From Narcine bancroftii (Eukaryota): a stretch of DNA of 64,000 nt. The position numbers and the translations under genes were made by a program. Position 1 is the first letter of the stretch, and each line of letters begins with the position of its first letter. Location of the stretch: contig NC_091469.1 of assembly GCF_036971445.1 (NCBI RefSeq), forward strand, positions 218,798,001 through 218,862,000, in the 5' to 3' direction. The notes beneath the pieces were generated by a model. It saw only the letters and a program-made list of their open reading frames with translations, did no database searches and had not been told where the DNA came from. This document shows, piece by piece, positions 26,749-50,538 of the stretch.

Positions 26749-27050
26749 TGTGGTGATATGACCACCAGCCTACTGCAGGGGGCAATCAATGTACCTGCAG
26801 GAAGACCACCTAAGGGCTGACTCCACCTGGCTTGCTGTCAATCAGCCGACCTGAATAGACCCCAAGGGGGCTGACTCCACCTGGCCGGCTGTCAATCAGC
26901 TGACCCAAACATAGACCTGAACCGGCCCCTCCTAGGCCAGTCACATGGGAGTCACTGAAGCATGAACTGATGTTCAAACATTTATCTGAATAAAGCCTGT
27001 TGTAGTCTTTTGAGTTTTGTGCTTGCTTGCTGTTACCTCAGTGCACCACA
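26749..27050 (+). repeat. G1 5' LTR
   Basis: TGTGGTG...CACCACA termini, AATAAA at 26989-26994; homologous to the solo LTR at 12140-12343. Confidence 0.88.
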
Positions 27051-29208
27051 ATTTATTAAGATAAAATTTAAAAGAATGACCATGGAAAAGTTCCTGTCGA
27101 TCGGGAGCTTGGAGTTTGGAGTTCGATCCTCAACGCCCAGAGGCCCAGGCATGCTTTGAGATCTGGAGGTATGGAATTGAGGTGATCATCCTGATGCAGT
27201 TGGAGGTGATTGACACAAATCAGAAGCAACTCATGGTGCTCCGCACAAAGTTGGGCCCCCAGGCCTTCCAGGCCACCAAGGACTGCACCAACTACAAAAC
27301 AGCGATGGCCATCCTGGAAGCCATGTACAAACCCCCGACGAACGTGGTCTCAGCAGCCAGGTGAGACGGCAGATACATACCTGGGGACCTACAGGAGCTA
27401 TCCTGCCCGTGCCTGACCGAGACTGGGGTGGTCCAAAGGGGGAAGTGGAGTGATTGATCTGAGATGCTTGCATGCGAGGTCTGCGGTCGAGGAGTGCCCG
27501 GCAGAAACTGCTGGAAGATAACATCACCTCACTTACTAGGACTATAGAGGTGGTCCACTCCCTGGAGGCTGCAGCCCTTCATGTCAAAGTCTTCGACTCC
27601 TGACTCCCCCAACACCCAGTCTGGCTGACACAGATGACTGCCATAGCCGAAGTACCGCACATAGAGGAGACCATTGCTGCTGCTGGCACCCCGCGCCCCT
27701 GTTGAGTCCTGGTGTGGGTCAGACAGGCAACCCCACAAAGGCTGCCCGCGAGGAACTCATACTTCTCCCGATGCAGAAAGAAGCTACACAAAAGTGCTCC
27801 AGACTGGCTGGGAGCCCAGTGGCCCAACGCCATCACTCACCCCACCACCTCCGGTTCTGCCACTGACCAGCACTGCTGCAGTGTGCTCCCCTCAGCCGGC
27901 TTCCGCCAGGACTGCTGAAGTCACCTCCACCAGTATGAGAGATGTAACTTCTATCAGTATGGATGATGCAACCACCTGTCCCACAGACAAAGGGGATGCC
28001 TGACCAGGCTGACTCCATGTGCGCCCACAGGACACCACTATCTTGGGCCAGTCAGGCCCTGACGGCATATCAACAGGACAAGATGGTCAACACAGGCATA
28101 TACCAGATCGCCCACTCGACGCACCCAATGGTTGAAAAGGAAACCACTGACCACTACTCGCCTCATCCATTGGGGAGCAACGACTTGGACCCAGAGATGG
28201 TCCTAGCATCTACCACCATAAAAAGGGACATTCATCATGGACTCGGGTGCTCAGTGATGGACATCACTGTCAATGCGAAGGTAACAAAATGCCTGTTTGA
28301 TAGCAGTAGTACTGAGAGCTTCGTACCAATTTTGCTATAGCCTTCGCAGCCCAAGACCACTCTATCAAAGCCCTCAGGCACTGCTTGGCAGATCTGACAG
28401 TGGGGGGGGAGAGAAACATACCATGGGTTCAGGCTCCTGGTTATGCCCAAACTCTGTGCCCCAGTCCTTTTAGGGCTGGATTTCCAGTGCCACCTCCAAA
28501 GCATTACCCTCTCTTTCGGCGGGCCACATCTCCCGCTCACAATCCAGATTGCTCAGCCCAGCAACTACCCCAGTCCACCTGTGGGCTCTCCACGCTGTGA
28601 ATAACCCCCTCTGCCCTCTTATGCCAGATTGCAAGCACATAGCGGCCAGGAGCAGATGCAATTGCACAACCAATCGGGGCTGAAGTGAGGCAGCTTCTGG
28701 CAGAGGGTATCATAGAGCACAGCACCAGCCCCTGGAGATCCCAAGTACTGGTGGTCAAAGGAGGCAGCAAACAGAGGACGGTCATCGACTACAGCCAGAC
28801 CATAAACCAATGCACACAGCTGGGTGCCTACCCCTACCCAGAATAGCCGACATGGTAAATGAGATAACCCACGGTAAGGTATTCTGCACGATTGACCTAA
28901 AGTCAGCCTATCACCAGCTCCCTATTCATACACGAGACAAGCCATACACCGCATTCGAGGCAGATGGGCACCTCTACCAGTTCCACCGAGTTCCGTTTGG
29001 GGTCACTAACAGGGTCTCTGTTTTTCAGCGGGAAATGGACCTCATGGTAGACCTGCACAACCTAAGAGTGACCTTCCTCTACCTGGACAATGTCACCATC
29101 TGCGGCTACGACCAGCAGGACCACGATGACAACCTGGAGAGATTTCTCTGGATGGCCAAGGAGCTGAACCTCACTTGCAATAAAGAGAAGTGTATGTTCA
29201 GCGCCATC
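26749..29208 (+). mobile_element. Gypsy LTR retrotransposon G1, 3'-truncated (5' LTR, gag, protease, RT), decayed
   Basis: gag ATG at ~27082, CLFDSSSTESF protease, and PLPRI, IDLKSAYHQLP, VPFGVTN, YLDNVTICG. Confidence 0.9.
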
Positions 29209-32178
29209 CATTTCACCCCAATCCTCCAGATGGGTACGTTCATGGTCGACATTTTATGTGTCATAAAGCTGTTGCTGGAATGGCTGAACTTGCAGTCATT
29301 GCATCTCACAAGAACTGGTTACCAGGCTAAATTTCATGTATTTCTCGGTGTTTCAGTTATTTGGTCACCAAAAGGATCCAGTGGAGGAGGATCCGAGCAA
29401 TTACTTTTCACATGGGTGATAGAAAGATTCCTCTATAGTCACTGCAGTACGTCTTGTCTCCGTTCGTGAATCACAGCCTATACGAGGGCCCCTGTCATAG
29501 ACTCCTCTTTTCAGGTGGGAATGATGATGTGGTGGATTTATAAGAGAAGATCATCACTGTTGACTTATTGGACTTCAATGGAGATTCCATTTAAACTAAA
29601 TTTTCTTATCTCCTCCCTCCCCCCCCACCTCCCCGCCCCACCACATGTCAAATATACCATGCCAGATGACCTGACTTTTCCTACCATGGCTTTGAATTTG
29701 CCCAGTAGATCTGCCCAGATGGGGAGGGGGGGGGGGGGAGGGACTGTTGATGGCTGCTTGAACAGAGCCTGCAGTGGGCCCTCTGGTTCGTGGAACGTTC
29801 TTCTTCACCTGAAACTGGCGGACATTTTATAGCATCTATTTGTAACCTGCCTCCTTGTGCCATTGTCTGGTTTCTGAAAATTGATTGCATGTGGCATTGT
29901 ATTGTTAGGCAGCTTTTTTTACCGGGTCAGGAGAACGCTATCTTGCTTTTAATGCTGTGTGGGGTGTTAATTGCAATAAAAAATGAAACCAGATAGATGC
30001 CCTGTCGCCCTCTGGGAAAGAGTCCAGGGTTTTTCAGGGGATGGAAGTTCTCTTTTGTTTCATCCCTTGAGGGAAGGAGTGCTGTGCCTGCGCTCATGAA
30101 CAGGGGGTTGATTCAGTGTTGGAGTGAGCTGACATGTTGATCTATGACCTTCCCTTCGTGACTCAAAATTGGTTGCAAGCAATTCATGTGCAATCTCTGC
30201 AAGAGCTGATCTGTGCCAAAACTCAGAAGATCATCTCACCAGAGATTGCACGGAACGTTGAGCACATATTTTTAGACTGCAGTATAATTCGGAGCAGAAA
30301 TATTCCCAGAACAGTTAAAAGCCTGTTGTAGGTGTTCAGTGTTATGGGAAGGAGAGGGGGCAGGTGTGTTCACAGAAAACCATTCAGATTGTGACTTTCT
30401 GCAGCACAATATCCCTTTCCCTTCAATCTCATGTTACATATGGAGACATGCCTACAGGATGTTTTTTTTTATCCTTTCCCATTCAGCTACATTACTGGCA
30501 ATGACAGCTGGTATTTAATGGCCGACTCTGGAGAAGGGGCAAGGCTTGTGTGAAGCAAAACAAACTCTGCCATTATTTATTTTTGCTCACTCAGTACTTG
30601 TGCTTGTAGAATATGGATACAACCTCTTCACATACCCTCAGACAGGAGAGGATGTGGCAAAGGAGGGACTTGGCTGTGACTGCAACATCATTAATGCAGT
30701 GATATCATATTTAATAATATTGCCCACTGCATTGAATCAATAAAGGATAAAAACTGGCAAAATGTATTGTTTTTTCCCCCACTGAGTTTATTTACTTATT
30801 CAACATAAATTCCATAAGAACAGATTTTATTCCATATTTAAATTCCTGGAAAGTGATTTGCAAATCCTGCAAGGATTAACTTCTGTTACCCAAATGCCTA
30901 TAATCAACAGGGTCACCTGTGCTATTGTCAGGAGAAGATTGTTAGTGGGGCTTTGAGATGCTTCAGTAAATGCACCTTAATCCTGTGTGAACGCAGCATG
31001 TTATGAAAATCATTATGCAATTAAATATATATTATTGACATTTGTTAGCTCGTACAGATTTGGATTAGATTAGGTATACACATTTTTCATTTTGGTTTCT
31101 CAGCAGGTGGAGATTTAAAGAGCTGACTTTCTCAGTTACAGACACATATTGAGTCAAAATTGTAGGCAAAACTTCATTTCGACGTGCACTCCCTGATACT
31201 TCGTGCTTGATGCTACTGTGACTTTTATGCTCTTGCCCAAGTATGCAGACACACCGATGTAAACCACATGAAAAAACATTTATGTAAAACAATGCTGGAT
31301 TCTTTACTTCGCATCTGATGCTCTGAGCATACACAGAGCATCATGCAGAGGAAACGCACACGAGGTTTGTCCAAAGGAAATGAATTAACAAGCAACAGTA
31401 CCACACCCTAAATTTTAATATGCTGAATTTACATGAAGAAGTCTTTCTGCCAAATTTATAAAACCCTTGCTCCAAATTACAAGGACAGCATCAGAAGTTG
31501 GGCCCTGACCCTGCAGGATCTCATTCTTAGTCAGACCATGGCATTCAATGACACCTTGCTCGCACTGCAGTTTTGTGGGTTGTGAGATGGCCAACAAGGA
31601 AACTGTAGTCTCTTCCACAGACCCGTTAGTCCAGGCTGGTTGTTGGTCTTTTTGGCAATGCACTTCTGTTTGCTCTGTTTGAGGCTCTTCATACTAACTT
31701 AAACGATTCCCATTCACTTTGAACAGTCATGGATCGCAGCTGGTGGCACAAGAGATTGCAGACATTGGAATCTGGAGTGATACATTATCTGCTGGAGGAA
31801 CATGGGTGAAGCAACAGTAGTGGGAGAACGAAGAACTGTCATTGTTTGGGGGGGGAGCAAACTCTTCATAAGGACTTAATTTTCCAGGAGTCAGTGGGGA
31901 TGTAGCTCTTCTTCCAAGAAGGTTTGAGCATATCCTTTGATGTTTTATTCTACATACCTGGCAATCTGTCAAAAAGACGCTGCATGTCCTGTTGCACAAC
32001 ATAGCAGATTGAGAATAGCCAGGGCCTTGTTGCTGGGGAAAGATGTTGACACTAGTTTGCTTATCCTCCAGTGGATTTGAAGGATTTTGTCCAGACTGAA
32101 TTGATGGCATTTCCCACCACCCCCCTCCCCCATTGTCTTGGGATGCCTGCTGTGTATAGTCCAGGTCTAAGGAATGAT

Positions 32179-32369
32179 TAAAGTGAACTGGGATTCACTG
32201 ATAGTGTGTTGTGCTGATGGCTGGCTCTGCCTCCTAGCTCCGCACCCATCTGCTCATATATAAACCTTGGTTTCCATCCTGAACCCAAAATCCTTCCAAA
32301 GACTACTGTTAGAAGCTAATAAAAGTGTTTGTTCTCCTTCCAGTCGTGAGAGCTTTTATTTGCGCTACA
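32179..32369 (+). repeat. G2 5' LTR
   Basis: Aligns with 36187-36391; TATATAAA at 32257, AATAAA at 32318. Confidence 0.88.
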
Positions 32370-35300
32370 ATTTTATTAGCTTATCCCCTAAATGATGGAA
32401 GTGCTACTCAAGACAGGGATTGCTGTTGATAGACCCTCTAATCCCCTGATGCAGCTAAGGAGTTCACGTACTGGCTGGACTGCTTCCAGACCTACCTGAA
32501 TGCAACCAGGGACTGTCTTCCACGCCAATGAACTCAGGTGGTGTGCACTAGTTTCTAGGGTAGGAACAAAAGGGTATGCAGTCATCAGGGACTGCACTAC
32601 ATATGATGCTGCCATCGAGGCATTGAGGGCTACGTACCTGAAGTCGCAGAACGAGGTCCTAGCGAGGCACTAACTCACTCTACGTCGCCAACATTCAGGA
32701 GAGATCATCAATAACTACCTGCTGGATCTGTGGACGCTTGCCAAGAAGTGCAGGTACGAAGCTGTGTTCATGAGGAAGAACAGATCCAGGACACTCAAGT
32801 CACGTGGTTCCGCTCAAGGGTCATGAGGCAGTGACTGAGTCGGATAAGAAAGATCTGGCTAGCCACATTCAACTGGCCAAATCAATGGAACAGGCCAAGC
32901 TTGAGAATGACAACCTCAAAGCCAGCAAGCTCACTCACCCTGGTGAGACCTTCCAAGGACTGGCTGCTCCCATTACCCCAGCCCTAACTGCTGCCGCTTC
33001 CCGTGCTAGGAAGTGCTTTTTATGAAGAAAGAGCTAGCATTCCTGATCTTGTTCCATGGCTAAAGACTCAGTGTGTTCCAGCTGTGGCAAGGACATTGGG
33101 TGAGGTTTTGCTGCACAAGGGGAAGCCCAGGGATGTCCATGACTTGCACCACTCCCGGATCAGATTCCAGCACCAAGCCGTCTGCCCTGAATTCACCCAA
33201 ACCCACTTGCTGCGCTACACGCTGATGGAGGGTGTCTGAGGAAACAGTGTGAAAAGGCTCAGTGACCATCTTGCTGCAACCCAAATTCAAATTCAGTGCT
33301 ATCATACCCACACAGGGCAATCCAGGATGGTGGGTGCCACTCGAGTGAGGAGTATGGATTCTCCGGGGTCTAAGCCTTAATGGTCCTGGATCAGGACCGA
33401 CCTCACCCGCTCAGCAATTCCATAATGACTGTGAAAGTAAACAGAAATTCCACTAAATGCCTAATCGACACAGGCTCTATTAAAAGCTTCATAGACTCAC
33501 GGACTCTGCGAGAATACAACCTAAAGATGCATCCTTCCAATTATTGCATATTCCTTGCATCTCATTCGCATTTTACACATATTCAATTACATTGTATAGT
33601 ACATCTGTCCTTTGAAGGGGGGAGTTTTGTAAGAAATGCCTGTATGTACTTCATGAATTGTGTGCTCAGGTGTTGTTGGGTCTGGACTTCCTGTGTCATC
33701 TTAAAAGCACGGCCTTGGAGTATTCTGGTCCCCTCCCCCCATAACGGTTTGGAACAGAGGGCCCCTAAAATCAGAACCCACATGCAGCTTCTCCACACTG
33801 AATATCAACCCCCTCCCCCCCCCCCCCAACGTCTCTTCCCGAATCTGTCCTCAGACTGCAAACCTATTGCTACCAAGAGTAGGAGGTACAGCACAGCAGA
33901 CTGAGATTTCATACAGTTTGAGATACAACATCTGCTCGAAGAAGGTATCATTGAACCTAGCACCAGCCCGTGGAGAGCACAAGTGGTAGTGATAAAAGGG
34001 GAAAACAAGTCCAGGACTATACCCAAACTATTAATCGGTACACACTCCAGGACACATAACCCCTCCCTTGAATTTTGGACATGGTGAATGATATTATGCA
34101 GTATCAGGTCTATTCAACCATCAATCTGAAAGCGGCTCATCATCAGCTGCCAATCCATTCTGAGGACCAACAATATATGACATTTGAGGATAACAGTCAT
34201 CTCTATCAATTCCGGAGGGTCCCCTTTGGTATCACTAATGGGGTTTCTAACTTCCAGAGGCAAATGGACAGAATGCTGGATGAGTATTGGTTGAAGGCTA
34301 CCTTCCCCTACCTCAATAATGTCACCATATGTGGCCACACCATGCAAGACCATGACACCAACCTCCAGAGTTTTCTCCATGCGGCGAAAGCCCTGAACCT
34401 CACTTATAACTGACAAGTGCATATTCAGGACAAAATGTCTGGCTATCCTTGGTCACATGATGGAGAATGACATCATTGGCCCCGATCCCGATAGGATGCG
34501 CCTCCTGTTAGAGCTCCCCATTCCCAGAGCCACGAAGGCTTTGAGGAGATCCCTGGGGTTTTTCTCATATTACACCCAGTGGATCCTTCAATACACTGAT
34601 AAGGTTCATCCTCTCTTAAAAGCCACTAACTTCTCCCTCTCAGCTGAAGCCCAAACGGCTTTTAACTACATCTGTAACCACATTGCAAAAGCCGCCATGC
34701 ACGCAGTGGATGAGAATGCATCTTTCCAAATGGAAAGTGATGCTTCGGACATAGCCCTACCAGGAAGGCCGGTTGCTTTTTTTTTTGGTTGGACATTACA
34801 AGGCCACGAGCTCCAGAACCAATCTGTGGAAAAGGAGGCTCAAGCCACTATAGAAGACATGAGGCACTGGAGACACTACCTGACTGGTAGAAGATATACG
34901 CTCCTCACTGACATGCATTCATGTTCAATAATGACAAGAGGGACAAAATCAAGAATGACAAGATTGCCAGGTGGAGAATCGAGCTCTCCACCGACAATTA
35001 TGACATTGCCTATTGGCCAGGAGCCCTTAATGACCCTCCAGATGCCTTATCCAGAGGAAGCTGTGCCTCTGCACACACAGGCCAACTGCGGTCTCTGCAT
35101 AATGAGCTCTGCCATCCAGGGGTTACCGCATGGTTCATTTTGTCAAGGCGTGCAATCTGCCCTACTCCATGGAAGATGTCAGGCAAATGATCAGGTCTTG
35201 CAAGCTGCACTTCTACTGCATCTGATCAAGACATCCAGACCCCTTGGATGGCTCAATGTCAATTTTAAGAGACCTCTCCCCTCCATGAATGGGAACACTT

Positions 35301-36186
35301 TCTTCCTCTCTATCATTGAGGAGTACTCCCACTTCCTGTTCACCATCCCATGTCCAGACACGTCCACTTCATCAGTCATAAAGGCTCTAGTTTCAATTTT
35401 CACCCTGTTCAGGTATCCCAGCTATATTCATAGCGACCATGGCTCATCCTTTATGAGTGACGAGCTACATCAGTGCATGCTGGTGAGGGGTATCACACCC
35501 AGCAGGACTACTAGCTACAACCCGCAGGGGAACAGGCAGGTTGAAAAGGAGAACACCATGGTCTGGAAGGCTGTCAAACTAGCCCTGAAGTCAAAAGACC
35601 TTCCACATTCACACTGGCAGGAAGTCCTTCATATGATGCTCCATTCCATCCAGTCACTACTATGTACCGTGACCAACGCTAACTCATCACGAAGTATCCT
35701 TTAAGTCTGGCTCAACCCTCCTGGTCCAGTCCTTCTCAGGAAGCAAGAGAGGAGAAGCAAGACTGACCCCCCTGGTGGAAAGGGTGAAACTGCTCCATGC
35801 CAATCCCACGTATGCCTATGTGGAGTACCTGGATGGCAGGGAGGACAGTCTCCATCAGGGGCCAGAACAGAGGGTCCATTTGCTCAGGGGCTCTGTGAGC
35901 CATGGAGCTCATTCTCACCACCCCCAGTCAGGGCCTCGGGGGATCCAGTTCAGGAGGAAAGTGCACTCCCCCTCTTCACCGTTGAGCCGGAGACCCAGCC
36001 TGCCTCCCCTCCTTCACAAGGGGACCAGAACACCCAAGGACTTCCAGTGCTAAGGCATTCCACCAGGATCTCCAGACCCCTGGACTGCTTAAATCTGTAA
36101 ATAATTGTATATTTTTCTACTTTTTTTTCTGAACCCATGTTGTCTGTCTTCATTCACAGACCCTAAATTCTAGAGGAAGGGGTGAA

Positions 36187-36391
36187 TGCAGTGAACTGGG
36201 ATTCACTGGTAGTGTGTTGAGCTGATGGCTGTCCCTGCCTCCCCCCCACTCCCAATCTGCCCACATATAACCCTAGTTTCCCGCTTAAACCCAGAACCCT
36301 TCTAAAGACCACTGTGAGACCTACCCTTATTTATAGGCTAATAAAAGCATTTGTTCTCCCTCCAGTTGTAAGAGCTTTTATTCACGCTACA
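36187..36391 (+). repeat. G2 3' LTR
   Basis: Follows the PPT, has TG...CA termini and aligns with the 5' LTR. Confidence 0.9.
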
Positions 36392-38739: not shown

Positions 38740-41385
38740 ACTTCTCAGAGCTCAATATGCAGCCTTCATGACAGGAGGCAAGTTGGCACCAAGATCAGCC
38801 AGGGCTGAACTCTCCCATGCAATCCAGAAGGCAAACATAGAGGAATCCAGAATCAGCTGTCTGACACTGGCAACATGAGGGGCATGTGGCAAGGCATCAA
38901 AACAGATCACAAGAGAATCTTTGAGTCAACGACAGCGAAACCTCCCTTCTGGACAGACTGGACATCTTATGTAATCATTTTTTGATGAGAAGAGCAAACT
39001 GATGCCAAAAAAAGCCGTGTCCTCTTGAAGAGGAAAACCTTGTGTAGCTGCAGCAGAAGTGAGGAGGACCCCATCTAGGGTGAACCCCGCGAAGCAGATG
39101 GACCAACTGCAGAGGTCCTTATGGCGATCATCAAAATATTATTACAACAGTCTATCATTCCCACAGGTTTCAAGGGAGCCATTATCCTGGTGCTAAAGAG
39201 GATGACAGCAACAGGCCTCAACGGCTACTACCCAGCAGCACTAATCTCCACCATTTTTAAGAGCTTCAAGTATCTGGTGATTGAAAGCATCAAAGCACAC
39301 TTCCCAGAGACATTGGACCCATTTCAATTCACCTACAAATGGAACTATTCCATTGATGATGCTATAGTCTTGTCTCTCCACTCCATCCTGACCCACCTAG
39401 AGAATGACCTCAGATTCCAAGTTGTTGTTCATGGACTTTAGCTTAGCGTTTAATACAAGAAGCTATCCTTGCTGGGATTTACTTTTCTCCATCTCTAACT
39501 GGAATTCCTAACAAAGATGGCAGTCTGTCCTGGTCAACATCAGAATGTCAAGCACCATTACGCTGAGCACTGGCACACCTCAGGGCCGTGTACTCAGCCC
39601 ACACTCGCTCACGCTATAAAACCACGATTGCATCACCAGACTCAGCTCCAACAGTGTCATCAAGTTTGCAGATGACATGACAGTAGTCGACCTCATCAGC
39701 AACAACGTAGAAGAGGCGGAAGATGTCATGAAATGGAGCAAGAATAACAACACGAGTCTCAACGTGGCAAGACAAAGGAGATGATTGGGGACTTCAGGAG
39801 GACCAGTGGTGATCACCCTCGATGACATGAATAACTCTGTAGCAGAGAGAGTGGAGAACACAAAGTGTAGAGCATTGGATCAAGGATCAATCCACTGGAC
39901 CGTAAAAGTGTCAGGTCTCTGGGGTGTCCTCCCCCATAAGTGATTTACTGGATAATTGTTTAAGGGGGGAAAGGTTTGAGAAAGAGGGGAGGAGGCGGGA
40001 GGGGGGAGGAGGCAGGAGGGGGGAGGAGGCAGGAGGGGGGAGGAGGCGGGAGGGGGGAGGAGGCAGGAGGGGGGAGGAGGCAGGGGGGGAGGAGGCGGGA
40101 GGGGGAGGAGGCGGGAGGGGGAAAGGGGGAGGGGGAAAGGGGGAGGAGGGNNNNNNNNNNNNNNNNNNNNNNNNNNNNNNNNNNNNNNNNNNNNNNNNNN
40201 NNNNNNNNNNNNNNNNNNNNNNNNNNNNNNNNNNNNNNNNNNNNNNNNNNNNNNNNNNNNNNNNNNNNNNNNNNNNNNNNNNNNNNNNNNNNNNNNNNNN
40301 NNNNNNNNNNNNNNATGTGGAGGAGGTGATCACTGATCCTCACTGATTATGATCTGCCAGATAGGAGGTTGAGGATGTCGACGCAGAGGGTGGGTGGGGT
40401 TCCGAGAAAGGTCTCAGAGCTTGTGGATGAGGGGGGAAGGAGGGATGGGGAAAGAGGGTGGGGGGAAAGAGGGAGGGGGAAGGAGAGGGGGAAGGGAGAG
40501 GAGGAAGGGAGAGGGGGAAGGGAGAGAGGGNNNNNNNNNNNNNNNNNNNNNNNNNNNNNNNNNNNNNNNNNNNNNNNNNNNNNNNNNNNNNNNNNNNNNN
40601 NNNNNNNNNNNNNNNNNNNNNNNNNNNNNNNNNNNNNNNNNNNNNNNNNNNNNNNNNNNNNNNNNNNNNNNNNNNNNNNNNNNNNNNNNNNNNNNNNNNN
40701 NNNNNNNNNNNNNNNNNNNNNNNNNNNNNNNNNNNNNNNNNNNNNNNNNNNNNNNNNNNNNNNNNNNNNNNNNNNNNGGAAGGGGAAAGGAAGGGGGGAA
40801 AGGAAGGGGGGAAGGAAGGGGGAAAGGAAGGGGGAAAGGAAGGGGGGAAAGGAAGAGGGAAAGGAAGGGGGGAAAGGAAGGGGGTAAAGGAAGGGGGGTA
40901 AAGGAAGGGGGGAAAGGAAGAGGGGAAAGGAAGGGGGGAAGGAGGGGAGAAGGAGGGAAGGAGGGGGAAGGAGGGGGAAGGAGGGGGGAAGGAGGGGGAA
41001 GGAGGGGGGAAGGAGGGGGGAAGGAGGGGGGAAAGAAGGATAGATGGAGGATAGATGGATAAAGCAGGGATGACCCCCACCACCCTGCAGACAGCATCTT
41101 CCAGCTTCTCCCATTGGGAAAGAAAGAGATACAGAAATATCAGAGCCAGAGCCACCAGACTGAGGAACAGCTTCTTCCCACAGGCAGTTAGACTGGTAAA
41201 ACAATTTTTTGTGACTTGACTATGTATAATAATATTTTTATATTCATGTACATGTGTTTATGTATCATTTGTCTGTGTGTTGTGTACTGCGTTTTGCACA
41301 GTTCTGCACCATCATCCGGAAAATGCTGTTTTGTCGGGTTGTACTGGTACAATGGAATGACAAATAAACAAACTACATATTTCAA
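38740..41385 (+). mobile_element. Rex1/Babar LINE, decayed, interrupted by purine-rich tracts and gaps
   Basis: MWQGIK, LDPFQF, GTPQG, IKFADD; resumes at ~41070 with DDPHHP...RLRNSFFPQAVRL. Confidence 0.8.
39965..41050. repeat. Polypurine low-complexity tracts ((GGAGG/GGAAGG)n) with N gaps at 40151-40314 and 40531-40777
   Basis: Directly visible. A short minus-strand Rex fragment lies at ~40315-40430. Confidence 0.95.
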
Positions 41386-44300
41386 TTAACCAATGTACAT
41401 GCTGCTAGGAAGGTTGTGTTCTGCTTGGTTGGACTAGCCTGCAGTATCAGAATCTGATGGAAACTGAGCTCTCATCTGCTCTCCACACCTTCTAATAATT
41501 ATCAGAGTATCTCCAATATTCATCCATGCAGAAGGTTGTAATTGTAACTTTCTCGTGAGCAAGGCACGTTGAATTTCAATTACTTAGAGCTGCATTTGAT
41601 CCAATCAACAATGCATCAGCCAGAGGGTAAAGGAAAATTTGTAACAGCCAGCTTTCATTTGCCTGGGCATCTTGATGAAAGAGCTGGCCAATGTGGCCTT
41701 AAATAACACACACCAGCTGCCCACTTGAAATGGGCAATGAGGCAGGGGTAGGCAGAGGAATGTGATTGTATGGCCGACAGAAGAGCCTGTCAAGTCTCCG
41801 ATACGATGGGAAGAGCCTTGGATTGAAAGGTGGGGGGGGGGGAGTGTTGGTGGTGGGAAGCTCTTGGCAGTCAAAGCCCAATATTAACGCCTCAAGGATT
41901 ATTCCTTCTCCTTCCATAATCATAAAGTCAGCTCTGCTGGTCTGATCACATCTTTTGCATGCACCACCACTACATAAAGATGGCATTTCTGCATTCTTGA
42001 TCCATAGCCTTTCAAGCAAACGTGACAGCAGAGTGCTGTCGACCAGATACATAGCCCAAGGATGTTTGGTAGAAAGTGATGCTGAATACTACATACAGAT
42101 GTGAACAATGCAAAACTCTCAGCTCAGTTCCTTTGTAGCCCTTTCACTTCACAATATTCCATCCAGCACCGATTCAAATAGCAATTCCATGTTAAAACCT
42201 GAATTTACTGACCACATTAAGAGGATTGGATATAGCGAATCATTAAAACCTTCCTTCACTTGTTTTGTGACGTGATCAGAAATGTGAAAAACTGTGTCTC
42301 TCCACAAATGCTGCTTGACCGTTTCACATTTAAAAAAAAAATTTCAGATCACCAGAATTCACCAACCTTTGATTTTATTATTTAAATGCAAGATTGAATG
42401 GAATGTGTCTTGGAAATGCCAACTCTATTTTCCAGAGTAAATATAGCTCAAACTTCATCTTGTTGATCATCACTGAGCAAGCAGCCGATCTCTTTAAGGG
42501 CAGCATATACATCAGGTATGCCCGAGTTTTTTTTTCCCCAGGACAAATTGATCATATTGTTGGACTTTATTTACTTCTGGGGTGGGGTGGGGGGGGGAGA
42601 GAGAAAAAGTCTATTATGTGTTTCAGCCAAGGGTACTGCATACAGATTATTGACCTTTGACCTTTATCTATGTAGTAGGCACATCTTGGTTATACTGAAC
42701 CATCAGCCTTCCATGTTGGAGGCAAGGAAAATGTAGACCCAACTAATAGAACCACGCCACCAAATTTCTAAACCAATATGCTTTCATGCTGTGACTTGGT
42801 GGATAAATATAGAATAAAACAACATTTCTCTTCTTTCAACATTGTACAGCCACTGGAGAACACAAATGAGCATAGGCTTTGATGTCTCATCACAAAGGAA
42901 CTGAAATGGCAGGGCTTGGAATCACCAAGGTGCAGACCATACTGCCCATCAAGACCTTGCTGGCTAGATTATAGAACATTTCAGCTCAACCCAGCCTTGC
43001 ATTTTTTTTTCCTTCACGCATCCAACAGACTCGACTATATTTGGCTCCACTGCTCTTGCTAATACATTTTAAAACCGAATCACTTGGTATGCAAAAAAAC
43101 CTCGTATCAGGTTTTTCCCAATCATCTTTATTCTATTTGCCCTTCTTTCTGACCTCTCTGCCAACCTGAACAAAAATCTTTCTGTGTATTCTGGGGTTTC
43201 AATGACTATAAGTTTTCCTGCAGAAGCCTCATTCCCAACAGGAACAGCCCAAGATTATCCAGTCTACCCACAAAACAAAGGTGTCTTATCCGTTAAATTA
43301 TTTTCGCAAGCCTTCAGTTACAGGCTTCAGGTATAACTACTGCTACTGAGACAAAATTCAGGGCTTAAGATAAACCTACCATTATTGTTACGAACCACTA
43401 CATTTAGAATGTAACATGTATGAGTCAAGAATGGAATTTCAGTCTTCCAGAGGGAGATGGACTGAATGGTGGATGACCACCAACTGAAAACCATGTTCCC
43501 CTACCTGGACAACATGACCATCTGTGACCATGACGCCAACCTGCAAAAGTTCCTCCAGACAGCAAAAGCCTAAACTTCACTCATGACCAGAAGAAATGAA
43601 TGTTCTGCACTTCGTATCTGACTATACTAGGGCACGTGGTGGAGAATGGAGTCATTTGACCTTACCCTGAGCGTATGTGGCCCCTGCTGGAACTCCCATT
43701 CCCCCATAACCTCAAGGACCTGAAAAGGTGCCTGGGGTTCTTTTCATACAATGGGCCCCAAATTATGCAGGCAAAGCCCGCTCCCTGGTTAAAAATTAAT
43801 ACTTTTCCCCATCTGCAGAGGCCCAAGTGGCCTTCACTTGCATCAAAGGCAACTTTGCCAAGGTGGCGATGCATGCCATAGACAAATCCATCCCATTTCA
43901 GGTGGAGAGCAATGCGTCTGACTTTGCCCTGGCTGCCACGCTGAACCAGGCAGACAAACCATGGCATTTTTCTCCCATAACCTCCAGGGCCCTAAACTCC
44001 AGCACTCAGTCATTGAAAAAGAGGCCCAGGCCATAATGAAAGCTGTGCGCCACTGGAGGCATTATCTAGCTGGCAAACTGTTCACCCTGCTGACTGACCA
44101 ACATGAGATCGCATTCATGTTCAACAACAAACAGGGGGGATAATTTAAGAATGACAAGAACCAGAACTCTCCACCTACAATTATAAGATTTTTGTACCGG
44201 CCCAGGAAGCCCTGTCACATGGTATCTGCACCAATGTGCAAGCAGATCGCCTCTCAGCCCTACACAGCAGCCTCTGCCACTCCGGGCTCAATCACTTAGT

Positions 44301-45421
44301 GAGAGTCCAAAACCTCCCGTACTCTGTTGAGGACATCAGGGAGCTGACCCACAGCTGCCTGGCCTGCGCACAGTGCAAGCCGCACTTCTACCAGCCAGAG
44401 AAAGCTCACCTGATTGATGCCACCCTCTCCTTCATATGTGCAAGTATGGATTTCAAGGACCCCCTCCCTTCTATGAACCAGAGCGTGCATTTTCTCAAAC
44501 GTTGATGAATGCTCACAATTCCCATTCGCCATCCCCTGCCCAAATACGACTACACCCATTATCTTAAGTCCCTGCGTAACCTCTTCACGGTCTTTGGATT
44601 CCCGAGTCATATTCACATTGACTGGGCGGGTCCTCATTTATGAGCGAGGAGTTGCGCAATACCTACTGGCCAAAGGCATAGCCATGAGCAAGACCACCAG
44701 CTATAACCCCTGAGGGAATGGCCAGGTGGAAAGGGAGAACGGCTCCATTTAGAGGGCAGTTCTCCTGGGCCTCGTCAAAAGGGCTGCCTGTCTCCCAGTG
44801 GCAAGAGGTCCTACCAGAGACATTCCACGCCACCAGGTCCCTCCTCTGTACAGTGAGGAATGTGACCCTGCATGAAAAATTATTTTCCTTCCCCAGGAGA
44901 TCACATTGGGAACAATGCTACTGGTTTGGCTGATGACGCCAGGACCTGTGCTACTCTGGAGACACACCAGAACCCACAACGCAGACCCCCCCGATCGTGA
45001 AAGTCCACCTCCTCCATGCAAACCCCGAGTATGCCTACATGCAGAACCAGGATGGGCAGAGAGACATTGTCTCTGTCCATGATCTATCTTATACTGGGCA
45101 CCACCCCCAATTGAAAAGCACACTGAACTGACCATGGTTGAATGACCAGCTCCACTCCCCATCCCCAGAACTAGCATAGACACAGTCAAGGATGTGACCC
45201 CACCACCCACCCACCCACTTCCCCAAACCAGCTTCAATTGATTCTATTCTTCCATCTGAATCGCAGCCCGTCAGAGCACTGCCCAGGAGCCTACAGCAAC
45301 ACTGCAGCCAGCACTCCGATGGTCAGTTCGACGGACGAAACCGCTGGACAGGCTAAACAAACTCTAACACTTCACCCCGCCGGATATTATTTCAAGAGAA
45401 GGGGTGAATGTGGTGGAACAT

Positions 45422-48249
45422 TGTGGTGAAAGGCATTTGAACAGATGTATGGACTGGCCAGTCCAAACCTCCCTGACCTTCCTTAACCTCTAGCTTAGCT
45501 CCCCCCTGGATTTCCTAATAAAAGCTGGTGTAGCCAGACTTGCCCCCTCTTGCTCCTGTATCTGGAACCAGGCCAAGTCGTGTATCAGTAATGCTCAAGT
45601 TTTTGGTAATTAAACCTGATTCCATCACATCGAAGTGATGATTGTGTGGTTCACAATTTAATTACCAAAACAAAAGTCATGGAAGCTCAAACAACAGGAC
45701 AAGGTAGCAGCGATCGGGAAGATGCCCAGTTAACCCAGCCACTTGGTGTAGAGGTGGACGTACTGTACCCTTCGGGTCTGCATCAACTCTTCAGCGGGTA
45801 ACAGGAGAGGTTTTCCAGCTGACCAGCCGCTCCCTTCGCGAGGCCGCCGCATGGGACGCAGCCGCTCCCTTCACGAGGCCGCCGCATGGGATGCAGCCGC
45901 TCCCTTCGCGAGGCCGCCTCATGGGACGCAGCCGCTCCCTTCGCGAGGCCGCCGCATGGGACGCAGCCGCTCCCTTCGCGAGGCCGCCGCATGGGACGCA
46001 GCCGCTCCCTTCGCGAGGCCGCCGCATGGGACGCAGCCACTCCCTTCGCGAGGCCGCCGCATGGGACGCAGACATTATTGTGCCATCACAACCTAAGGAA
46101 GGCTGGAGATAAGAACGATTTCCTGTTTGCATCTGTAGACGATTGGGTGTTTTGAATAATTACAGATGGCCGAACATAGGATGAAGCGATGGCCCTGTTG
46201 CAGAAGCAGTACGGAACCCTGACAAACCCAATGTATGTGAGGTACAAATTAATGTCCTAGCATCAAGCCCCTGGGGACCCTTTTGCACAGATCACGCAGG
46301 TGATAAGAGATCTGGTTAGAGCCTGCATGTATACTCTGGTGAGTGCCTCAGTGTATGCCAATTAGCTGTTGCGGGACAGACTGATGACAAACATGCTATC
46401 GACCTACGTCCGTCAAAGACTCCTGGAAAAAGGTAACTGCATGTTGCAAGAAGTAATGGATTTGGGGGGAGGCGATGGAGACTGCGGTGCAAAGCTGTGA
46501 GGCTTACACCCCCAACGGTCGGGCATCTACATGGGTAACTTGGGCGCCACCATGTTGGGATATGGCATTGACGGTAGTGGCCGTCAAGTGCAGGTTCTGC
46601 AGGCTGGCCAGGCACCCCCGGATGTCCTGCTCAGCCAGGAACGCAGTGTGCTTAAATTGCAAAAAAGGGCACTATGCAAAGATGTGCAGGGACAGCCCAC
46701 TGCTAGCAGCACCACGCGTGATTCGAGGGATGGGTAACATCTTTGGGGGAGTGGTCACCAAGATGACGATCACCAACATCATTTTTGGCTTCGGATCAGT
46801 GATCGCTAACTTCACTTTCGGTCCCAGCCATGTGTGAGTACTGGGGGTAGCCATCTTCTGAGGCGCCGAGTCCGACACATTACCATCAGGAATGGTACAA
46901 TGGTGACCCTGAATTGGACCCAACTCTGACCTCCGTGACGCTGGATCAGAACACGCCTCACCAGCTGGCATGATCAATGATCAACATTAAGGTTAATGGC
47001 CATGTCATGGGTTGTTTGTTTGACACAGGAAGCACCAAACGTTTTATCCACCTGGGCTTAATAAAGTGCTGTGCACTGAAGGTGTCTCCGGAAAAATGCC
47101 AAATATCCCTGGCTTGTTAAGCCATGTCTGCAGAGACGTGTGGGTACTGTCAGATAGACTTAAGGGTGCAGGGCAGGGAGTACAGGGATTTTAAAATCAT
47201 GGCAATGCCCTAACTCTGCACACCGGTTATTCTGGGGTTAGACTTCCAGTGTCAGCTGGAAAGTGTAATGATGCATTTTGACAGTCCACACCCCCCATCA
47301 AAGTGCAGAACGAGGAATTTAGCCCAGCCAATGAGAGTAAGGTGGGAAGCATGTGTGGGCTGTCCACCCTTTTGGTCCCTCCACTTATCAGAGAATTGCA
47401 GACCGATAGCCGCCAAAAGCAGGAGATCTAGCGCGGAGGACGCATGTTTTATTAAAACTGAAGTCCAGACGCTGTTGACCTAAGGCATAATTGAGCCCAA
47501 CAACAGCCCCTGGAGAGCGCAGATGTTGGTGGTAAAAGCCGAGGGTGGGGTGGGGGTTGGGTGGGGTGCTGAAGAACTGGATGGCAAGACTGCAGCCAGA
47601 CTGTGGATAGATTTATGTTACCGGATGTCTACCCCCTACCCCGAATTGCCGACATGGTGAACGAGATAGCCCAAAATAGGGCCTTCTCCAACGTAGACCT
47701 CAAGTCGGCATAGGATCAGATCCCAACCCACCCAGAGGACAGGACTAACATGGCTTTTGAAGCTGACAGCTGACTATATCAGTTCTGCAAGGTGCCATTC
47801 AGTCTGAAGAATGGGGTATCTGTGTTGCAAAGGTAGATGGACTGCATGGCAGATGATCTCAAGCTAAAGGCAATGTTCCTGTATTTGGATAACGTCACCA
47901 TATGTGGTCATGACGTGGAGGAACACGATACGGATCTAAGGGAATTCGTCGCCGGGGCAAAAACCCTAAACCTGACGTATAATCAGAAGAAGTGCGTGTT
48001 CCACACTTCACGGCTGGCGATACTAGGGTACATGGTGGAGGGAGGAATCAGGTCCCCAAACCCTGAGAGAATGCGCCCCCTAAGGGAACTACCATTGTCC
48101 TAGAACCTGAAAGCCCTGAAAAGGTGCCTTGGGTTCTTTTATTATTATGCCCAATGGGGCCCCAATTATGCAGACAAGGCCCAGCTATTAGCGAAGTCAA
48201 CAGACATCCACCCCCATCAGCAGAGGCTCATAAAGTGCCTTTCACCACA
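45422..48249 (+). mobile_element. Gypsy G4 (5' LTR 45422-45655, gag, protease, RT) nested in the G3 LTR
   Basis: Perfect TSD AACAT (45417-45421, 48250-48254); CRFC..H..C..C..C..GH gag knuckles, CLFDTGS, YLDN at 47882. Confidence 0.9.
45824..46071. repeat. 35-bp GC-rich minisatellite, 7 copies
   Basis: Unit CAGCCGCTCCCTTCGCGAGGCCGCCGCATGGGACG, head-to-tail with only a few substitutions. Confidence 0.97.
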
Positions 48250-48489
48250 AACATGGTATTGCAGCCATTGTACCGGTTGGCCCGCCCCTGACACTGTAAC
48301 TCCTCCCCCTCCAGGATTCCTAATAAAGGTGGTATCGCCCAATCACCTCCCTCAGTACTGCCGTGGAATCGGGCCAACAGCATGTAAGCTATGACTAAGT
48401 TTGTAGCAATTAAAGCCTATTAACCTCAATGTCTGGTCTGTCAGGTCTAGTTGATAGCACTACAAATGCCCTGGTGAAGCCATTCCAAA

Positions 48490-49480: not shown

Positions 49481-49888
49481 CTCAAAGATTTTGAGACAGG
49501 ACCTCCCTCAATGAATGCTGAGTATTCCTGATAAGTCTATATTTGTTTGCAAGTAAATCCTATTCCCAAGAATCTTCTCTAATAAGATCCCTCCCATTGA
49601 TATACAGCACTCAAGGTTTGACCCTGTTATCATTCGTAAAGAAGGGAACAACAGTGGCTATTCTCCAGTTTTCTGGGACTTTGCCCATGGTTAAAGATCT
49701 GTCAAGGCTCCACCTTCACCTGCTTTATTCCCAATTTGGAAAAGTTTGAAATTGTTTGTAATATGCTTTGGTCATTGAAGTTGCCTTTTGCTCTTTTTCA
49801 AATCTAAGTGTTGGAAAACTCCAAAAATTATACTTATAGATGTTTATATCTCAAACAAAACCGCATTGGTGGGACTATCACTAGTGCT

Positions 49889-50109
49889 TGTGGTAAACCA
49901 CTGCAATGTATAATTATCTGGTCGAGCACACCCATTGGCTGGTTGTACCTGTGGCGCCTCCCCATGGGTTCCTTTATAAAGGTGACTGTTCCACAGCCCC
50001 TGCAACACAGTGCAGGACAACTAATTGGTAGGAATATGTTATGTTCTCAAATGATTAATCGCCCATTGATTTCTCCACAATAGTCTCCTGAGTGATTGAT
50101 GGTGCATCA
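49889..50109 (+). mobile_element. Gypsy-type solo LTR
   Basis: TG...CA termini, TATAAA, perfect 5-bp TSD GTGCT (49884-49888, 50110-50114). Confidence 0.8.
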
Positions 50110-50538
50110 GTGCTGACCTGGGAGGGCAGACACAACACTGCTCTGCAAGATCCTTCTGCTTTCTTTATCTGTATAGGCTTCAAGTGGCTTGTTAAAGGAC
50201 CCGACCGTGTTTTAAGTTAAATCTGGCAACCTCGGAGGTCTGTGCCCAAGATGATTGTACATGTACTCAGCAGGGGCCACAAGGGGTTGCAGTCTCTGAG
50301 GGTACTGCAGACCAGCACAGGCACCAGAAATGGGGAGGAACACCCTTCATTGAAGAGAAGCAGACGACTATACAAGATGGTGACCATGGCAGCTGACCAG
50401 CGAGGGGATCAGTGGTTGAAGGACACACGAGGTGTGGGCAACTTGCGGTCTGAGGACCCAGAGGGGACTGGCTCATGGGAACCAGGTATTGTGCTGGGAT
50501 AAGAGAGAATACTGAGGAGAAGATGTGCTCCCGAAGGG

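Follow-up and report, generated by a model that had tools for sequence, protein, structure and literature searches.

What primes reverse transcription in a Ty3/Gypsy element whose 5′ LTR is followed, at the position of the primer-binding site, by the complement of a segment of that same LTR? The question is raised by a decayed element, G2, located in a window of 64,000 nucleotides of the Narcine bancroftii genome (contig NC_091469.1, positions 218,798,001 to 218,862,000 of the forward strand), for which a first-pass annotation had proposed a new system of self-priming, poly(A) masking, or both. The elements of the window were assigned to the Ty3/Gypsy (Metaviridae) class on the basis of the Pol order PR-RT-RH-IN, the LTRs, the polypurine tract and the absence of env, and Ty3 Gag-Pol is their best solved relative. 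The coordinates of G2, of its neighbours G1 and G4, and of the remnant G3 are collected in Table 1.

Table 1. Features of the G1, G2, G3 and G4 elements, in positions of the window (position 1 is its first nucleotide).
Feature	Position	Strand	Remarks
G1 5′ LTR	26749..27050	+	arm at 26981-26994
G1 primer-site position	27052..27065	+	14 bp with own arm, one mismatch
G1 gag-PR-RT, decayed, cut off within RT	27076..29210	+	3′ LTR not found
G2 5′ LTR	32179..32369	+	start decayed to TA, end CA; ~82% identity to 36187-36391
TATA-like box of G2 5′ LTR	32257..32264	+	motif scan; 56 nt upstream of arm; start site predicted
G2 LTR arm (predicted self-primer)	32313..32324	+	AATAAA inside at 32318-32323
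G2 U5 stretch complementary to AATAAA region	32352..32360	+	could form a local hairpin instead, as in the fold of the 3′ LTR
G2 spacer, one base (A) between LTR end and primer site	32370..32370	+	
G2 primer-site position, pairs with own LTR arm, without TGG	32371..32384	+	
G2 gag-PR-RT-RH-IN region, decayed (stops and frameshifts)	32392..36100	+	
G2 polypurine tract	36172..36186	+	
G2 3′ LTR	36187..36391	+	arm copy at 36333-36346
G3 remnant: RT end, RH, IN, polypurine tract	43427..45408	+	
LTR between G3 polypurine tract and G4	45409..45655	+	arm at 45601-45614, ending ATTAAA
G4 primer-site position	45657..45670	+	14/14 complementary to own arm
G4 gag-PR-RT-(RH), decayed, with 35-nt tandem array	45679..48230	+	

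In G1, G2 and G4, the terminal CA of the 5′ LTR and one spacer base are followed by 12–14 bases that are complementary to the element's own LTR. The exact reverse complementarity that had been reported for G2 (32371-32382 against 32313-32324) was confirmed at these coordinates, as was its extension to 14 bp with one G-U when 32371-32384 is paired with the 3′ LTR copy of the arm (36333-36346). G1 and G4 display the same geometry, the LTR ending at 27050 and 45655, respectively, followed in both cases by a spacer A and the site, which pairs over 14 bp with one mismatch in G1 and at 14/14 positions, with ATTAAA, in G4. TGG is absent from the primer-site position of all three elements, in agreement with the claim that they possess no TGG-type primer-binding site. 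The 12-bp perfect helix of G2 was matched by none of 1000 shuffled LTRs (shuffle mean 4.9, maximum 9), and the complementarity is thus beyond chance. The G2 copy is an imperfect one, its 5′ LTR lacking approximately 16 nt of the 3′ LTR directly upstream of the arm and the 5-mers flanking the element agreeing at 3/5 positions; the LTR that precedes G4 lies directly behind the polypurine tract of G3, so that a single LTR serves both G3 and G4. Since the window copies are decayed and their folds are weakly stable, with z-scores (G2 −2.1, G4 −1.3, G1 0.1) that indicate modest stability at best, the case for the pairing was built on covariation between families and not on folding energy.

For this purpose 29 variants were picked by hand, 13 from this genome (G000) and 16 from metagenome contigs, some of them closely related. 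Pairing with the own LTR is complete (13/13) in 18 variants and reaches 12/13 in a further eight, so that 26/29 pair at 12–13 positions, with a helix of 8–23 bp and a loop of 27–76 nt. At positions 5–13, beyond the last four bases that the families have in common, the site matches its own LTR at 8.59/9 positions as against 4.60 in comparisons across families, and several helix columns hold three or four different base pairs among the variants. At one pair of the largest family, examined genome-wide, 712 copies are unchanged, 19 are altered in the arm only, 29 in the site only and 17 on both sides; all 17 double changes are complementary, where 2.1 would be expected, and they represent two lineages (16 in one subfamily and one in another) and not 17 events. 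No double change was found within the 29 nearest copies of the G2 family and the 29 of the G4 family, of which 26/29 and 24/29, respectively, pair with at most one mismatch, proportions that are biased by the selection of these copies for similarity; the spacer is A in 28/29 of the G2-family copies. Among copies with both LTRs, mismatches are confined to the site in 10 cases, to the 5′ arm in seven and to the 3′ arm in 12 (442 sites), the balance to be expected of copies that were almost perfectly matched when they inserted.

The generality of the pairing was assessed with a test in which the junction was called blind to complementarity and a match to the own LTR at ≥12/13 positions was set as the threshold. 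Of 180 loci examined, an RT hit was obtained in 152 and an LTR pair in 78, and truncated, duplicate, unsnapped and over-long pairs were excluded (5/52 from G000 and 10/21 from the metagenomes). The threshold was reached by 28/47 clean G000 elements and 9/11 clean metagenome elements, compared with shuffled-LTR means of 8.7 and 9.2, respectively, and with 0/47 and 0/11 for the 3′ flank. Control elements of another clade never reached it (0/5, four of the five being flagged) and, where their junction is visible, present CA, five bases and TGG. Many of the 19/47 clean G000 elements below the threshold proved, in the subset that was checked, to be boundary mis-calls or deleted junctions, and the complementarity is present in 59/73 elements if the junction is re-anchored upon it, a count that is no longer blind. 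Both paired strands are AT-rich and the window copies fold weakly, features from which a fortuitous complementarity might be suspected; this explanation is refuted by the shuffled LTRs, the excess of own-family over cross-family pairing, the uniformly complementary double changes and the blind test. The claim that the letters vary between families while the pairing is kept therefore holds, and we conclude that pairing with the own LTR is real, clade-wide and under selection.

The same junctions were compared with host tRNAs, for which the 30 best loci supplied an incomplete set of 24 distinct tRNAs with 13 anticodons. The site begins with TGG in 0/29 variants, and the best match to a tRNA 3′ end within this set extends to only 4–6/13 positions, which supports the supposition of the first-pass annotation that the elements bear no tRNA primer site of the 3′-end type. 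The spacer base is A in 26/29 variants and the base behind the arm is a purine in 27/29, which places the end of the helix next to the end of the LTR. Such a sharp stop, one base from the LTR end, would be required by a primer and not by a mask, and together with the polarity of the pairing it bears out the proposal that the geometry is compatible with priming.

The second role that had been proposed, concealment of the 5′ poly(A) signal, was sustained in part. A canonical poly(A) hexamer ends the arm, and so lies within the helix, in 20/29 variants, the complement is present only behind the 5′ LTR, and gag starts approximately 8–11 nt behind the helix in G1, G2 and G4; a hairpin that mainly hides the poly(A) signal or controls the translation of the nearby gag, with priming left to something else, would account for these features. 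Against this, the canonical hexamer is absent from the arm end in 9/29 variants, the arms of L071–L074 and L095 end in a non-canonical hexamer, and L071 and L073 carry a canonical hexamer downstream of the arm where it is left unpaired. The stop of the helix beside the LTR end would be needless for a mask, and no alternative primer site is present at this position. Masking is also not clearly specific to the 5′ LTR, since the AATAAA of the G2 3′ LTR is itself able to fold into a hairpin with U5. Masking thus looks secondary, and while a hairpin devoted chiefly to masking or translation is improbable, it is plausible that concealment of the 5′ signal arises as a by-product in the 20/29 variants, the hexamer not being the conserved feature.

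If the arm is a primer, its position within the transcript becomes decisive. In a motif scan all 29 variants lacked a TATA-like motif at 25–35 nt upstream of the arm; a TATA-like box lies 56–91 nt upstream in 11/29, most metagenome LTRs being without one, and in L035 and L052 an initiator-like motif follows the box by 27–29 nt. The earlier suggestion that transcription starts tens of nucleotides upstream of the arm accordingly stands for the fish families, in which promoter motifs are seen, but it is confined to those families and is based on motifs; four sequencing runs of contigs, their type being presumed, revealed neither transcription start nor poly(A) sites. These observations bear on a rival reading, namely that the system is of the classical Tf1 type, with the transcript starting at the first base of the arm, the RNA's own 5′ end acting as the primer and the novelty lying in the clade alone. 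Pairing and polarity are identical to those of Tf1, which primes with its first 11 bases (PMC7175516, in part), whereas the promoter motifs are placed too far upstream for such a start and the helix is variable in length, from 8 to 23; we regard this reading as rather unlikely.

The mechanism that we prefer would proceed as follows. In the fish families transcription would start approximately 30 nt downstream of the TATA-like box, that is some 25–55 nt upstream of the arm, and the arm would fold back to the primer site over a U5 loop of 27–76 nt. The RNA would then be cut directly behind the 3′ end of the arm, probably, as in Tf1, by the RNase H of the element, to yield a capped fragment whose 3′ end would prime minus-strand DNA synthesis. 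Poly(A) sites lie approximately 15–30 nt behind the hexamer, and in elements whose arm has a poly(A) hexamer at its end the segment of that length between the cut and the poly(A) site would serve the first strand transfer. As the primer would be copied by plus-strand strong-stop DNA, changes in the arm could be written into the primer site and the two would stay matched. From the sequence comparisons assembled here, self-priming by the element RNA in some form appears highly probable, and for its specific form, in which the clade would prime in cis with an internally cut arm of 12–18 nt of its own LTR, we estimate the chances to be slightly better than even. A second stem directly after the arm, as a Tf1-like structure would lead one to expect, was also sought; it measures 3.7 bp against 3.3 bp in the null and is above the null in 16/29 variants, which is not significant overall, while a metagenome subset chosen post hoc gave a combined p of 0.01.

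Element RNA could also prime in trans, a short transcript polyadenylated at the 5′ LTR or the 3′ end of a second genome being trimmed to the arm. That the arm terminates at the poly(A) hexamer in 20/29 variants is in keeping with such a primer, as is one fold-back product, L320, that copied the arm of the 3′ LTR through the polypurine tract. This route would, however, demand that approximately 20 nt and the poly(A) tail be trimmed off exactly, and the primer would face competition from the arm in cis; we give it little credence in comparison with the internally cut cis primer.

Further information on the site was obtained from insertions in which the LTR end and the site are continued by more of the LTR complement. 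This fold-back pattern occurs at 38 places in the largest family and at 10 in the G2 family. Thirty of the largest-family matches were read, and in seven of these loci a complete LTR is followed by the spacer and the site and then by the front half of the LTR in inverted orientation, internal sequence being absent from the locus; their 5-bp target duplications are perfect in four, agree at 4/5 in two and are absent in one. Private variants differ among the seven insertions, which indicates several independent origins. The inverted copies extend past the predicted start site to the start of the LTR, which argues for a DNA template and not for a copied RNA tail. An end of the fold-back copies at the transcription start site was considered and rejected, since they either reach the LTR start or its vicinity or break off at short shared sequences. 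Plus-strand strong-stop DNA is known to terminate in the primer-site sequence (PMC7175516, in part), and the seven insertions are best explained by such DNA, ending in the site, having annealed to an arm and been extended before integration. The remaining matches could be genomic events; they comprise palindrome corrections, small inversions, one 90-nt concatemer and elements with a deletion whose sequence picks up again at a short shared stretch. The seven insertions tie the site to reverse transcription, although they do not reveal which RNA is the primer.

In retroviruses the primer-site sequence is copied from the primer (PMC7472051, in part), and an equivalent recopying of the site from the LTR is suggested by a subfamily of the largest family in which the pair described above has become T-A. 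In 12/15 copies of this subfamily at least four of the five leader bases behind the site are complementary to the 5 nt of the LTR that precede the arm, as against 0/12 copies of the main type, and L286 has a match lengthened likewise with a variant of its own; a single templated event would explain both the changed pair and the longer match. Copies with G-A and T-C mismatches are nevertheless found among those of the T-A subfamily, and in 7/18 copies the two arms, 5′ and 3′, differ at this site, so that recombination blurs the test and recopying remains a suggestion. The mismatch classes at the one pair likewise do not decide between recopying and stepwise compensation.

The comparison with tRNAs yielded a second, unforeseen result: the arms resemble nt 12–24 of tRNA-Thr(AGT/TGT), with a mean of 8.9/13 that is the best of 1496 tRNA windows (next 7.1). 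This likeness is present in each of three sets (fish, metagenome and one variant per branch), and it was reached by 0–1/300 shuffled tRNA sets and by none of the 127,106 13-mers of the window; it was recognised post hoc, in the incomplete tRNA set, and against a null that does not keep D-loop motifs. At arm positions −13 to −5 agreement with tRNA-Thr is 5.28/9 (shuffled 2.92), and the main difference lies at position −6, where 3/29 arms carry the G of the tRNA and 23 carry an A that is part of the poly(A) hexamer. Beyond the arm the likeness is weak (5/29 at p < 0.05, although the two tRNA-Thr genes rank first and second of 24), and upstream of it there is none.

It may therefore be asked whether the actual primer is a piece of host tRNA-Thr that runs from its 5′ end to nt 24, the LTR arm being a decoy or regulator in cis. 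Besides the rank of this tRNA segment, the sites of L072 and L073, which pair with it at 13/13 positions if G-U is allowed, speak for such a primer. Across the 29 variants the site nevertheless tracks the LTR and not the tRNA, and sites in G000 pair at 11–13/13 positions with their own LTR compared with 8–10/13 with tRNA-Thr. A tRNA primer should, moreover, write its own complement into the site (PMC7472051, in part), yet the exact complement of tRNA-Thr was found in no G000 element, with no sign of reversion, and a search for an LTR end followed by that complement gave two chance hits against three in the reversed control. Present-day tRNA priming is on these grounds unlikely in G000, though conceivable in L072 and L073, and a host tRNA-Thr fragment as the primer of the clade is, in our opinion, very unlikely.

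The sequence likeness does permit that the arm may descend from, or mimic, nt 12–24 of tRNA-Thr. A fuller scenario is conceivable, in which the clade was once primed by the D-arm of tRNA-Thr, took up this segment in its LTR and at present cleaves its capped RNA internally at the corresponding bond, the captured end having become the poly(A) signal in most families and the site being recopied from the LTR in each cycle, with arm and site evolving in lockstep. We put this forward as a tentative proposal that is more probably wrong than right; the most tRNA-like arms are not basal in the tree and so do not bear out the order of events that it assumes.

The elements that carry this arrangement form an abundant group. 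Searches of this genome (3.33 Gb) with two RT queries returned 47,413 and 41,907 first-look candidates. The nearest named proteins are from the sharks and rays Scyliorhinus, Mobula and Hypanus; further ones come from the nematode Trichinella, the ant Cyphomyrmex, the spider Uloborus, the leafhopper Macrosteles, the soft coral Xenia and the sea slug Plakobranchus, and a search of IMG/VR found no relative. A single gag-pol ORF of approximately 1180–1340 aa, short LTRs, a double Cys-His motif in Gag (27/29 proteins) and SPW[RH]AQ in RT (28/29) characterise the 29 long relatives, none of which matched a Chromo or SH3_Tf2-1 domain at an E of 0.01. In a quick RT-RH tree of 58 rows, with few outgroups and a long-branch warning, 44 rows form one branch (SH-aLRT 100) apart from 10 chromovirus-type and four integrase-before-RT rows. 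By protein sequence the clade is distinct from the chromoviruses, of which this genome yielded one frameshifted copy without an LTR pair and three hits. The double Cys-His motif in Gag is typical of the Mag lineage of animal Gypsy elements, which the clade also resembles in its single gag-pol ORF and short LTRs; 'Mag-like' may serve as a provisional label beside a tree whose 58 rows include no named Mag, CsRN1, Cigr-1 or MolGy reference. The motifs of the clade do not occur in the part of the supplementary files of PMC6238403 and PMC8556966 that was searched, a literature search found no paper with YLDN together with reverse transcriptase, and a search for Cigr and primer-binding-site terms in the available text of PMC2774666 gave no match.

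In the literature consulted, self-priming has been demonstrated in Tf1 of fission yeast and is predicted for the Tf1/sushi chromoviruses and two plant lineages. The clade described here would add to these a separate and abundant animal group, with more than 40,000 RT candidates in this genome and relatives in many animals and, if its primer is internal, would indicate that a self-primer need not equal the first bases of the RNA. Whether hairpin or tRNA priming came first is an open question, for which hairpin priming has been argued as the earlier form (PMC3601003, in part). The likeness to tRNA-Thr makes the order testable within one lineage and points in the direction opposite to that argument, and if the capture scenario were true a path from tRNA priming to self-priming, independent of Tf1, would be visible. 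Small-RNA defence exploits the 3′ ends of host tRNAs (PMC7472051, in part), of which self-primed elements would be independent.

The literature searched, which included available parts of PMC3601003, PMC6238403, PMC4600332, PMC5341516, PMC5006619 and PMC3670739 and lay outside subscription papers, Repbase and GyDB, where an earlier database note is possible, contains no description of priming in this clade. Related arrangements are known from other elements. The fungal GalEa elements, with their Conserved Hairpin Site, and bivalve TRIMs carry by the 5′ LTR an inverted repeat that has been proposed as a substitute for the tRNA site (PMC5445492, PMC6934838, both in part); they likewise lack a tRNA site, but both arms of their repeat are internal, whereas here one lies within the LTR. 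In the half-tRNA-primed copia elements (Osser, Bryco, Bianca and the fungal FunCo1) the site pairs with a stretch from the interior of a tRNA (PMC6317226, PMC5445492, both in part), which recalls the near-complementarity of the present sites to nt 12–24 of tRNA-Thr; the differences are that the site of this clade tracks its own LTR and that the tRNA segment concerned is the D-arm. For the plant Tcn1 (gypsy) and TAR (copia: Houba, Osr-1) lineages the prediction of self-priming was based on complementarity to the LTR over 10 bp or more, beginning 0–5 bp behind the LTR (PMC6317226, in part), and the same complementarity is seen in the elements analysed here, which belong to other clades and hosts; the available text mentions no link to a poly(A) signal or a tRNA-like arm for the plant elements.

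The closest parallel is that with Tf1 and Tf2 of Schizosaccharomyces pombe, Tj1 and the Tf1/sushi group, which also lack a tRNA site and in which the site pairs with a segment of the 5′ LTR. RNase H cuts the Tf1 RNA between bases 11 and 12 (PMC7175516, in part), and a three-duplex 'pretzel' has been described for the Tf1/sushi group (PMC10085805, in part). The present clade differs from this group in the absence of a chromodomain or SH3_Tf2-1 domain (0/29) and in its separate branch in the quick tree (SH-aLRT 100), and in an arm that is predicted to be internal, that ends in TAAA, usually as part of a poly(A) hexamer, and that resembles nt 12–24 of tRNA-Thr. What had been put forward as a new system is rather a variant of the known Tf1-type self-priming, and the best reading of these sequences is that of Tf1-like self-priming, probably with a primer that is cut internally, in elements that lie outside the Tf1/sushi group.

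In the T-A subfamily, the branch of the largest Narcine bancroftii (G000) family in which one base pair between the predicted self-priming LTR arm and its complementary primer site is changed on both sides, the same G/T change separates the 5' from the 3' LTR in 7 of 18 copies (L258-L294). Decay alone would yield this difference far less often, which suggests that subfamilies exchanged sequence by gene conversion or strand transfer. Loci L095 and L135 carry, 10-25 nt upstream of their own arms, pyrimidine runs followed by AG, an arrangement resembling a splice acceptor.

Several rearranged copies contain inverted LTR sequence. Seven palindromic double-LTR insertions in the genome (L298, L299, L300, L303, L306, L311 and L317) possess two U3 ends and lack the internal region, and six of these are flanked by 5-bp target duplications, four of which are perfect. 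L335 looks like their counterpart among the copies related to element G2. In two further G2-family copies (L334 and L336) a short inverted LTR copy extends the primer site before a switch into gag, which occurs at a 7-nt sequence common to both sides. In L320, a 5' LTR with its primer site is succeeded by 3' LTR sequence in inverted orientation, which continues across the polypurine tract and into the end of the integrase region. L307-L310 (G000:C5:368631763-368632058) form a tandem array of at least four copies of a 90-nt unit composed of the U5 end, the primer site and 47 nt of inverted LTR.

Features of the window associated with the decayed Gypsy elements G3 and G4, and further repeats, are listed below. 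The probable solo LTR displays weak similarity (63-66%) to the LTRs of G1 and G4.

LTRs and repeats in the window
Feature	Position	Remarks
LTR common to G3 and G4	45409-45655	Within G3/G4 stretch 43427-48470
LTR-like stretch behind G4	about 48220-48465	Another family, being just 64% alike to G3/G4 LTR
35-nt tandem array	45789-46106	Inside G4 gag
Probable solo LTR	about 49865-50110	TATA-like box, CA end
G-rich simple repeats	39961-41046	Surround two N stretches (40151-40314, 40531-40777)

The control clade was an abundant Gypsy family of the same genome (L182, L189 and L193), in which an SH3_Tf2-1 match upstream of the RT denotes an integrase-first order. Its LTRs measure about 720-860 nt, with a TGG-type site 5 nt past the LTR, and we presume this family to be 'Gmr1-like'.
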